Source of the DNA: Escherichia coli
Lineage (GTDB): Bacteria; Pseudomonadota; Gammaproteobacteria; Enterobacterales; Enterobacteriaceae
NCBI RefSeq assembly: GCF_003334385.1
Contig: NZ_QOWN01000013.1
Reading direction: 5' to 3' (one strand)
Length of the DNA stretch: 64,000 nucleotides
Part shown: piece by piece, positions 62,601 to 64,000 of the stretch
Numbering within the stretch: the stretch's first letter is position 1
How the letters are laid out: each line of letters begins with the position of its first letter
Notes under the pieces: generated by a model
Databases searched by the model: none
The model's input: the letters and a program-made list of their open reading frames with translations, nothing else
What the model was told of the DNA's origin: nothing
Position numbers and translations under genes: made by a program

Positions 62601-63434
62601 GTGATTGTCACTATTGTCGGTTGGCTTGTGTTGTTTGTCTTTCTGCCCAACCTGATGATCATTGGCACCAGCTTTTTGACCCGCGACGACGCCAGTTTTG
62701 TCAAAATGGTCTTTACGCTGGATAACTACACGCGTCTGCTCGATCCGCTCTATTTTGAAGTGCTATTGCACTCGCTGAATATGGCGCTGATCGCCACCCT
62801 CGCCTGCCTGGTGCTGGGCTACCCGTTTGCCTGGTTTCTGGCGAAGTTGCCACACAAGGTGCGTCCGCTGCTGCTGTTTCTGCTGATTGTTCCGTTCTGG
62901 ACCAACTCATTAATTCGTATCTACGGGCTGAAAATTTTCCTCAGCACCAAAGGCTATCTCAACGAGTTTTTGCTCTGGCTGGGCGTTATCGACACACCAA
63001 TCCGTATCATGTTCACGCCCAGTGCGGTGATTATCGGTCTGGTTTACATTCTGCTGCCGTTTATGGTGATGCCGCTGTACTCCAGTATCGAAAAACTGGA
63101 TAAGCCGTTGCTTGAGGCGGCGCGCGATCTCGGTGCCAGCAAGTTACAGACTTTTATCCGTATCATTATTCCACTGACGATGCCGGGAATTATTGCCGGA
63201 TGTCTGCTGGTGATGCTGCCAGCGATGGGCCTGTTCTATGTATCCGACCTGATGGGCGGTGCGAAAAACCTGCTGATCGGTAACGTCATCAAGGTCCAGT
63301 TCCTTAATATTCGTGACTGGCCGTTTGGTGCAGCTACCAGCATTACGCTGACTATCGTAATGGGCCTGATGTTGCTGGTTTACTGGCGCGCTTCTCGTTT
63401 GCTGAATAAGAAGGCAACCGAAATAGATGATTAG
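62601..63434 (+). CDS. potB: Spermidine/putrescine ABC transporter permease PotB with a non-canonical C-terminus
   Basis: Overlaps potA stop; GTG at 62601 gives (M)IVTIVGWLVLFVFLPNLMIIG...; the ORF ends ...RLLNKKATEIDD* and is not followed by potC. Confidence 0.75.
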   Translation: MIVTIVGWLVLFVFLPNLMIIGTSFLTRDDASFVKMVFTLDNYTRLLDPLYFEVLLHSLNMALIATLACLVLGYPFAWFLAKLPHKVRPLLLFLLIVPFWTNSLIRIYGLKIFLSTKGYLNEFLLWLGVIDTPIRIMFTPSAVIIGLVYILLPFMVMPLYSSIEKLDKPLLEAARDLGASKLQTFIRIIIPLTMPGIIAGCLLVMLPAMGLFYVSDLMGGAKNLLIGNVIKVQFLNIRDWPFGAATSITLTIVMGLMLLVYWRASRLLNKKATEIDD

Positions 63435-63541
63435 TGCTGAATATTCAAAAAGTTAATAGCAAATTTGGCATGCTTTTTACTTTTGCGTAAAAAGCATGCC
63501 TCTATCCATAAAATCAAATAGTTATAATCTAATTTTGGAGA

Positions 63542-63901
63542 ATGTTTTTTTCAGCGCCCTTTGATCTGATCGCTGAAAAAACAACAAATAGTATAAAAAT
63601 GAACAATCCGAATCCATGCATGACGTGTGGTGCCTGTTGTGCATTTTTCCGCGTATCCTTTTACTGGGCTGAAGCAGATGATGCTGACGGCACCATCCCC
63701 GTAACGATGACAGAACAAATCTCTCCATACCATCGATGCATGCCGGGCACTAACCAGAAAAATCCTCGCTGTGTCGCCCTGAAGGGTGAACCTGGAGTCA
63801 ATGCCTGCTGCAGCATCTATGAACATCGCTCATCCACCTGCAGAGAATTTCAGATGTCCGGAGAAAACGGCATCGTGAATGAAGCGTGCAACCGCGCATG
63901 A
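63542..63901 (+). CDS. YkgJ/UPF0153-family putative Fe-S or zinc-binding protein
   Basis: ORF contains [17 protein letters not shown]...[27 protein letters not shown] (CxxCxxCC plus distal Cys cluster); start uncertain (ATG 63542 or 63599); resembles K-12 YkgJ from memory but not verified. Confidence 0.6.
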
Positions 63902-64000
63902 GCAAAATATGGGCTAAACCCACTCCAATAACGCGATCATAATCACGGCAATAACATATTTTTTATGACATTATCCGTCATGTATGACATAACAACTATC

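Follow-up and report, generated by a model that had tools for sequence, protein, structure and literature searches.

A potABCD operon split after potB in Escherichia coli, very probably at the boundary of a lambdoid prophage

Introduction

The potB/potC junction is an established and common prophage attachment site in E. coli, and a junction of the kind described here is already known. Prophage Sp6 of O157:H7 Sakai has potC and potB as its flanking genes (PMC8190617), prophage J of O104:H4 lies at potB/potC (PMC3486847), and so do Stx2 phages of O113:H21, that of EH41 included (PMC9453080). A review lists potC among the sites occupied by Stx phages and credits Steyert et al. 2012 with it as a new site (PMC8065619); the word ‘potC’ is absent from the main text of that paper (PMC3491183). 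As to the effect on the host, the published description is that such phages ‘disrupt’ the operon, and it goes no further (PMC9453080). A second described system concerns ykgJ, a relative of which is found here next to potB: prophages that integrate into prophages use the segment between ykgJ and ecpE as a secondary attB (PMC8112680).

We analysed a 64-kb stretch of E. coli DNA (64,000 nucleotides, hereafter the window) near the end of which potB runs into DNA that is not that of the K-12 operon. The earlier note on this stretch had reported a potABCD operon broken after potB, with potC absent and replaced, and had named a rearrangement, a deletion, an engineered junction or an assembly chimera as the cause. 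We find no support for any of these causes, and attribute the break to lambdoid prophage integration: with a probability of about 0.95, positions 63403-64000 are the int-distal end of a prophage of the P-Eib/Sp6 lineage, integrated at potB/potC by a tyrosine integrase. The main value of the analysis lies in this correction, by which an apparently broken operon or misassembly becomes a routine prophage boundary.

Results

The junction and its 12-bp core

When the whole window is compared with K-12 MG1655 by local BLAST, identity runs at 99.8-99.97% and ends exactly at 63414, the final base of the 12-bp sequence TGAATAAGAAGG. The closest complete genome is SW070917 (NZ_CM129862.1), which is 100% identical over a 701-bp query and 99.97% identical across the window, and it carries both ends of the interrupted site. 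In a three-way alignment of the window junction, the K-12 potB-potC junction and the SW070917 int-potC junction (second core at L002 35005), TGAATAAGAAGG is present in all three and is the longest sequence common to attB and both prophage junctions. Only the window sequence follows K-12 to the left of the core, and only the int-side junction follows it to the right. This swapping of flanks around TGAATAAGAAGG is the pattern of site-specific integration at a common core. In the empty site the core ends 10 bp upstream of the potC ATG.

An att core had previously been judged unrecognisable at this junction. It is present, at the very base where identity to K-12 ends, and it escapes recognition from the window alone because the second junction falls outside the window. 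Neither vector, FRT nor lox sequence occurs at the junction, which is structured as a natural att site. The features of the region are collected in Table 1.

Table 1. Features at the potB end of the window, named according to the prophage reading.
Feature	Coordinates	Strand	Remarks
potA	61451-62587	+	intact host gene; from the ORF list; annotated as potA in the identical SW070917 region
potB (hybrid)	62571-63434	+	host-encoded to 63414; phage-arm end of 6 codons (ATEIDD) and stop
att core (common overlap) TGAATAAGAAGG	63403-63414	+	crossover region at the potB-side junction; int-distal; attR in lambda nomenclature
new potB tail and stop	63415-63434	+	phage-arm DNA
int-distal attachment-site arm (attP P-arm equivalent)	63415-63598	+	no K-12 homology; includes the new potB tail and stop
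perfect inverted repeat	63467-63480 / 63487-63500	.	14-bp stem, 6-nt loop; 33 bp past the new potB stop
IHF-type consensus WATCAANNNNTTR (AATCAAATAGTTA)	63512-63524	+	predicted; overlaps the ‘tataat-like element’ at 63523-63528
second inverted repeat	63546-63581	.	11-bp arms, 14-nt spacer; just 5' of the YkgJ-like ORF
phage-borne YkgJ-family cysteine-cluster gene	63599-63901	+	100 aa, CxxCxxCC; cargo at the extreme prophage end
prophage intergenic DNA	63902-64000	.	leads to an eaaA-like SPATE gene starting beyond the window

The sequence TGCTGAATA occurs twice near the junction, at 63400-63408, where it overlaps the core, and at 63435-63443, just past the new potB stop, where it belongs to the palindrome TGAATATTCA. 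It is not kept in Sp6-like arms, which read TTTTATATTCA, and may be a core-type Int half-site or a product of chance.

A hybrid potB with a phage-encoded end

The earlier description of the host side was accurate: the ORF list and translation have potA and potB in place, the potB frame ending ...LLNKKATEIDD*, and no potC-like ORF appears in the remaining 566 bp (63435-64000). The core spans the potB codons LNKK, after which the phage arm completes a GCA codon and continues with ACC GAA ATA GAT GAT TAG. PotB here therefore ends in ...RASRLLNKKATEIDD, as against ...NKKVELE in K-12, where the potB stop overlaps the potC ATG; four host residues (VELE) are swapped for six (ATEIDD) and a stop codon.

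The PotB variant with the ATEIDD tail is WP_000799399.1, and the identical protein is annotated in five independent lysogens from different continents. In the arms of Sp6-like and Stx1a phages, which are ~86% identical to that of the window, the tail carries two substitutions, ACC to ACA and GAT to GAC, both synonymous, and a diverged second arm family encodes the tail VSELDD, of the same length and character as ATEIDD. With so few sites this conservation is only suggestive, and it fits a common pattern in which a phage entering the 3' end of a gene rebuilds that end. PotB-ATEIDD is probably functional.

The prophage and its far junction in SW070917

Two copies of TGAATAAGAAGG lie 54,761 bp apart in SW070917. 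The interval between them opens, on the potB side, with the YkgJ-family gene, an S6-family autotransporter protease, a small ORF and a YadA-C-terminal-domain protein, and continues through tail fibre genes, J, other tail and head genes (capsid, and a portal pseudogene) and terminase to lysis genes (holin/lysozyme), RusA, replication protein P and DnaT-like genes. Divergent HTH regulators of the repressor type, a RelBE pair and dicB follow, and the interval closes with an IS4, an exonuclease (exo), an excisionase and an integrase with an arm-binding N-terminal domain. The integrase, just before the potC-side core, has 372 aa and matches phrog_7244 (E = 7e-68); the adjoining excisionase has 89 aa and matches phrog_629 (E = 5e-26). 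Four marks of an integrated lambdoid prophage are found, with the far-end items taken from SW070917: a direct-repeat core at both ends, int and xis, phage modules and an empty site in related genomes.

Beyond the second core come 10 bp, the potC ATG and then potD. PotC and PotD of SW070917 show 0 differences from K-12 (100% identical), and the core with its 10 host bases preserves the potC start and the purine-rich region for ribosome binding. Intact PotC and PotD beyond the second core mean that potC has been displaced by the prophage, not deleted. Of the claim that the operon is broken after potB, the physical split thus stands, and the absence and replacement of potC do not: potCD lie intact 54.8 kb downstream in SW070917. 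The proviso attached to that claim, that spermidine uptake would be lost unless potCD were elsewhere, was the correct escape clause, since in SW070917 they are found beyond the prophage integrase.

Several pseudogenes are present in the SW070917 prophage, which also bears a frameshift in its portal gene and an IS4 insertion; on account of the last two it may be defective and not inducible. Because the window stops 586 bp past the core, what we say of the source genome beyond that point (far junction, prophage integrity, potCD) is inferred from relatives, and that genome probably has the same far end as SW070917. No free-phage attP record was found in the phage collection, where the matches are Stx1a prophage extractions and P-EibA/C fragments; the prophage extractions still carry the potB flank.

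Occupancy of the site across E. coli genomes

We surveyed attB in 5,426 complete E. coli genomes with a 301-bp K-12 query centred on the core. The potB-potC junction is uninterrupted in 3,800/5,426, so that about 30% of these genomes (roughly 1,626) have the site occupied. Where sampled genomes have it interrupted, query bases 1-139 align with the potB half and bases 128-301 with the potC half, and the stretch common to both is exactly the 12-bp core. An 81-bp query across the window junction, at a coverage of at least 80%, finds this junction type in 659 genomes, O157:H7 strains included. A further ~960 records match bases 1-64 only of the 81-bp query, at 80-90% identity, and both inspected members of this class have a related but diverged arm. 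The two classes (659 and 963) would together approximate the roughly 1,626 occupied genomes, an equation taken from identity bands.

For the full 701 bp, which takes in the ATEIDD end of potB and the YkgJ-like gene, 88 independent complete genomes give matches at a query coverage of at least 87%, EH41 among them. The earlier note had named native occurrence of this exact sequence downstream of potB in related E. coli as the observation that would overturn its reading, and this is what we observe, in 88 genomes for the 701-bp sequence and in 659 for the junction.

Elements of the phage arm

The arm at 63415-63598 is present in 303 genomes (megablast, coverage of at least 80%). Its 184 bp, which separate the core from the YkgJ-like ORF, show 86-100% conservation among prophages with different cargo, as expected of an attP arm. 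Within it, the perfect hairpin that had been noticed at 63467-63500 is indeed present and perfect, with a stem of 14 bp rather than 13. Folded as RNA it reaches -21.8 kcal/mol (z = -6.5 against shuffles). It has no U-tract or T-run on either strand and receives no call in a terminator scan, of which the sole call is a weak site at 63923-63909 on the minus strand. The hairpin loses one or two central pairs in Sp6-like and Stx1a arms through changes on one side of the stem only, and no compensatory changes occur among the diverged arms, so covariation lends no support to the hairpin as an RNA structure. An Rfam search of 63300-64000 at a permissive threshold gave chance-level matches only (E 0.25-0.86, far below gathering scores). 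Our best guess is that the hairpin is a protein-binding palindrome or a structure stabilising the 3' end of the truncated potAB transcript.

The IHF-type consensus has 8 matches in the 64 kb against 3.9 expected, and ~0.02 would be expected in this arm. It overlaps the ‘tataat-like element’, for whose role as a promoter we find no support, a sigma-70 promoter scan of 63200-64000 returning 0 sites. The Sp6-like arm keeps the IHF consensus (AATCAAACAGTTG) while losing TATAAT, which favours a role in recombination architecture. Judged from sequence, elements of the arm would bind Int and IHF. The second inverted repeat is weak (z about -2) and is not conserved in Sp6-like arms.

The same att arm, from AAGAAGGCAAC on and with the hairpin and the ykgJ start included, also occurs in the O121:H19 strain 16-9255 (L011 3976-4206). 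There it stands away from potB, downstream of a different, shorter integrase and beside espK, and it looks like a recombinant or nested junction, as in prophages that integrate into prophages.

A phage-borne ykgJ paralogue and further cargo

The ORF that follows the arm had been described as Cys-rich and of the YkgJ type, and the protein families agree: the product, annotated as WP_071780837.1 in SW070917 and 2013C-3033, has a full-length match to the CxxCxxCC family in Pfam (PF03692; residues 6-98, model 1-85 of 85, E = 2.4e-11) and shares 83% amino-acid identity with K-12 YkgJ (78% at the nucleotide level). No model in PHROGs or NCBIfam matched the protein. An alternative start at 63542 was discarded as belonging to a mechanical ORF only, PGAP placing the start at 63599 in identical genomes.

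In K-12, ykgJ adjoins the ecp operon, as previously stated for this ORF family. Nucleotide homology to it begins at the ATG and ends shortly past the stop of the window copy. We rejected a relocation of the chromosomal ykgJ, since 78% nucleotide identity and homology limited to the coding sequence mark a diverged, phage-borne paralogue. The window allele ends at a TGA (63899-63901) where K-12 ykgJ has AGG, giving 100 aa against 109 aa; 23CRST047 and EH41 have prophage ykgJ-like copies of full length (330 bp, 109 aa). The ykgJ/ecpE intergenic segment was undetected in the visible 600 bp of the element. The gene could plausibly have been captured when a prophage next to ykgJ excised aberrantly.

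Past the paralogue, 63924-64000 is 98.7% identical to the P-EibA record AF151091 just downstream of eaaA, and the S6 peptidase gene of SW070917 stops ~350 bp beyond the last base of the window. The next genes in SW070917 and 2013C-3033 encode a 1,335-aa SPATE, a 156-aa ORF and a YadA-type trimeric autotransporter; the SPATE is EaaA-like and resembles Pic, Hbp and EspP, and the YadA-type protein resembles EibD. This SPATE/orf156-like/Eib-like module was seen at L001 21055-27162 of SW070917, 350 bp to 3.2 kb past the window end (also in L009). The nearest genomes thus carry virulence-type cargo, an EaaA-like SPATE protease and an Eib-like immunoglobulin-binding adhesin, which is notable on a near-K-12 backbone.

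The host backbone

Window positions 1-50836 align to K-12 MG1655 at 99.97% (12 mismatches) and 50621-63414 at 99.77% (local BLAST), the potA region being collinear within the latter block. The two blocks overlap by 216 bp (50621-50836, the 3' end of icd), an overlap that corresponds to the icd/icdC duplication and hence to an unoccupied e14 site; the absence of the cryptic prophage e14 at icd is the sole structural difference from K-12 up to 63414. The backbone is near K-12, yet its closest complete genome, SW070917, is a wastewater isolate from Galapagos. In SW070917 umuC carries an IS4, and a second IS4 lies inside the potB/potC prophage; umuC is uninterrupted in the window (~30023-30034), and the 12-bp overlap of the alignment blocks there fits an IS4 target-site duplication. 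The sRNA C0299 (RF00119, 111.9 bits) at 31542-31620 on the minus strand is the sole Rfam gathering-level match in the window, in which no tRNA genes were found.

Discussion

In the mechanism that we propose, attP x attB recombination within TGAATAAGAAGG, spanning the final codons of potB, would yield a prophage flanked by two cores. On the potB side the phage arm would swap VELE for ATEIDD and a stop, followed by attP-arm DNA and the phage-borne ykgJ paralogue; on the far side xis, int and the second core would be followed by potC, with its own ribosome-binding site and start codon, and then potD.

Within the window alone, where potC is missing and the tail of potB is foreign, one could suppose that a deletion or large rearrangement had removed or displaced potCD and fused potB to unrelated DNA. 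We consider this very unlikely: the breakpoint falls to the base on an att core in recurrent use (about 1,600 genomes), the sequence downstream is that of a prophage and occupies the same position in 88 to 659 genomes, and potCD are intact past the prophage in the nearest relative. Still less credence attaches to an assembly chimera or an engineered junction, for which the abrupt loss of K-12 homology, and nothing more, would speak. The identical junction recurs in many complete genomes that were sequenced independently and come from various countries and hosts, it has the structure of a natural att site without vector, FRT or lox sequence, and the occurrence of an identical PotB (WP_000799399.1) in lysogens from different continents in effect excludes such an origin.

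A narrower question concerns the state of the element, the junction being the same either way. It is possible, at rather less than even odds, that the window borders a decayed remnant or compound prophage cluster and not a single complete inducible prophage. The pseudogenes, IS4 and frameshifted portal gene of the SW070917 copy point in that direction, as do the compound prophages with internal deletions described at potC in O157:H7 (PMC10925052) and the occurrence of the same arm inside a prophage cluster of O121:H19; against it, SW070917 retains int and xis, the two cores and a complete complement of structural modules. The reading that we prefer for the junction itself, prophage integration at potB/potC, is common to both.

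Integration physically separates potAB from potCD. A sigma-70 scan of the int-potC interval of SW070917 returned 0 sites, so no potCD promoter can be proposed there; int is co-oriented with potC, so that, to judge from this arrangement, read-through into potCD is conceivable. These phages might even have evolved to keep the split operon working, with an acidic PotB tail, a hairpin cap and potCD transcribed from the int side, an idea that we regard as improbable. If it were true, spermidine uptake would depend on the transcriptional state of the prophage.

Among described elements the closest are Sp6, prophage J of O104:H4 and the Stx2a/Stx2d phages of O113:H21 (Stx2d_EH41), which share with the window the attB, the 12-bp core and WP_000799399.1. 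Their attP arm (Sp6/O113:H21 type) is 86-99% identical to that of the window, hairpin and start of the ykgJ-like ORF included. The cargo beside the arm differs: here it is the ykgJ paralogue and then, in the nearest genomes, an eaaA-like SPATE gene and an eib-like gene, whereas the Sp6-like prophage of strain 94_0962 carries T3SS effector genes (espW, nleG family) and EH41 has only the 109-aa ykgJ-like gene before its tail fibres. P-EibA of ECOR-9 (AF151091) has the same late-end order, J, tail fibre, orf191-like, eib, orf156, eaa, but nothing in its record resembles the ykgJ-like gene or the potB-type att arm, and P-EibA therefore has a different end and integration site. With attB-in-PP_2 (Nakamura et al. 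2021, PMC8112680) the element shares chromosome-derived DNA of the ykgJ region near a lambdoid prophage end, at about 80-84% identity; it differs in that homology here covers only the ykgJ coding sequence, without the ykgJ/ecpE intergenic segment in the visible 600 bp.

The general architecture is that of lambda and its Int/Xis/IHF system, with a short core duplicated at both ends, int and xis at one end and tail genes or cargo at the other, an Int with an arm-binding N-terminal domain and an IHF-like consensus in the arm. The core differs from that of lambda in sequence and in length, with 12 bp of identity here and 15 bp in lambda. Unlike lambda's intergenic target, the target here is the 3' end of a gene within an operon, so that the phage has to rebuild the end of the gene that it enters.
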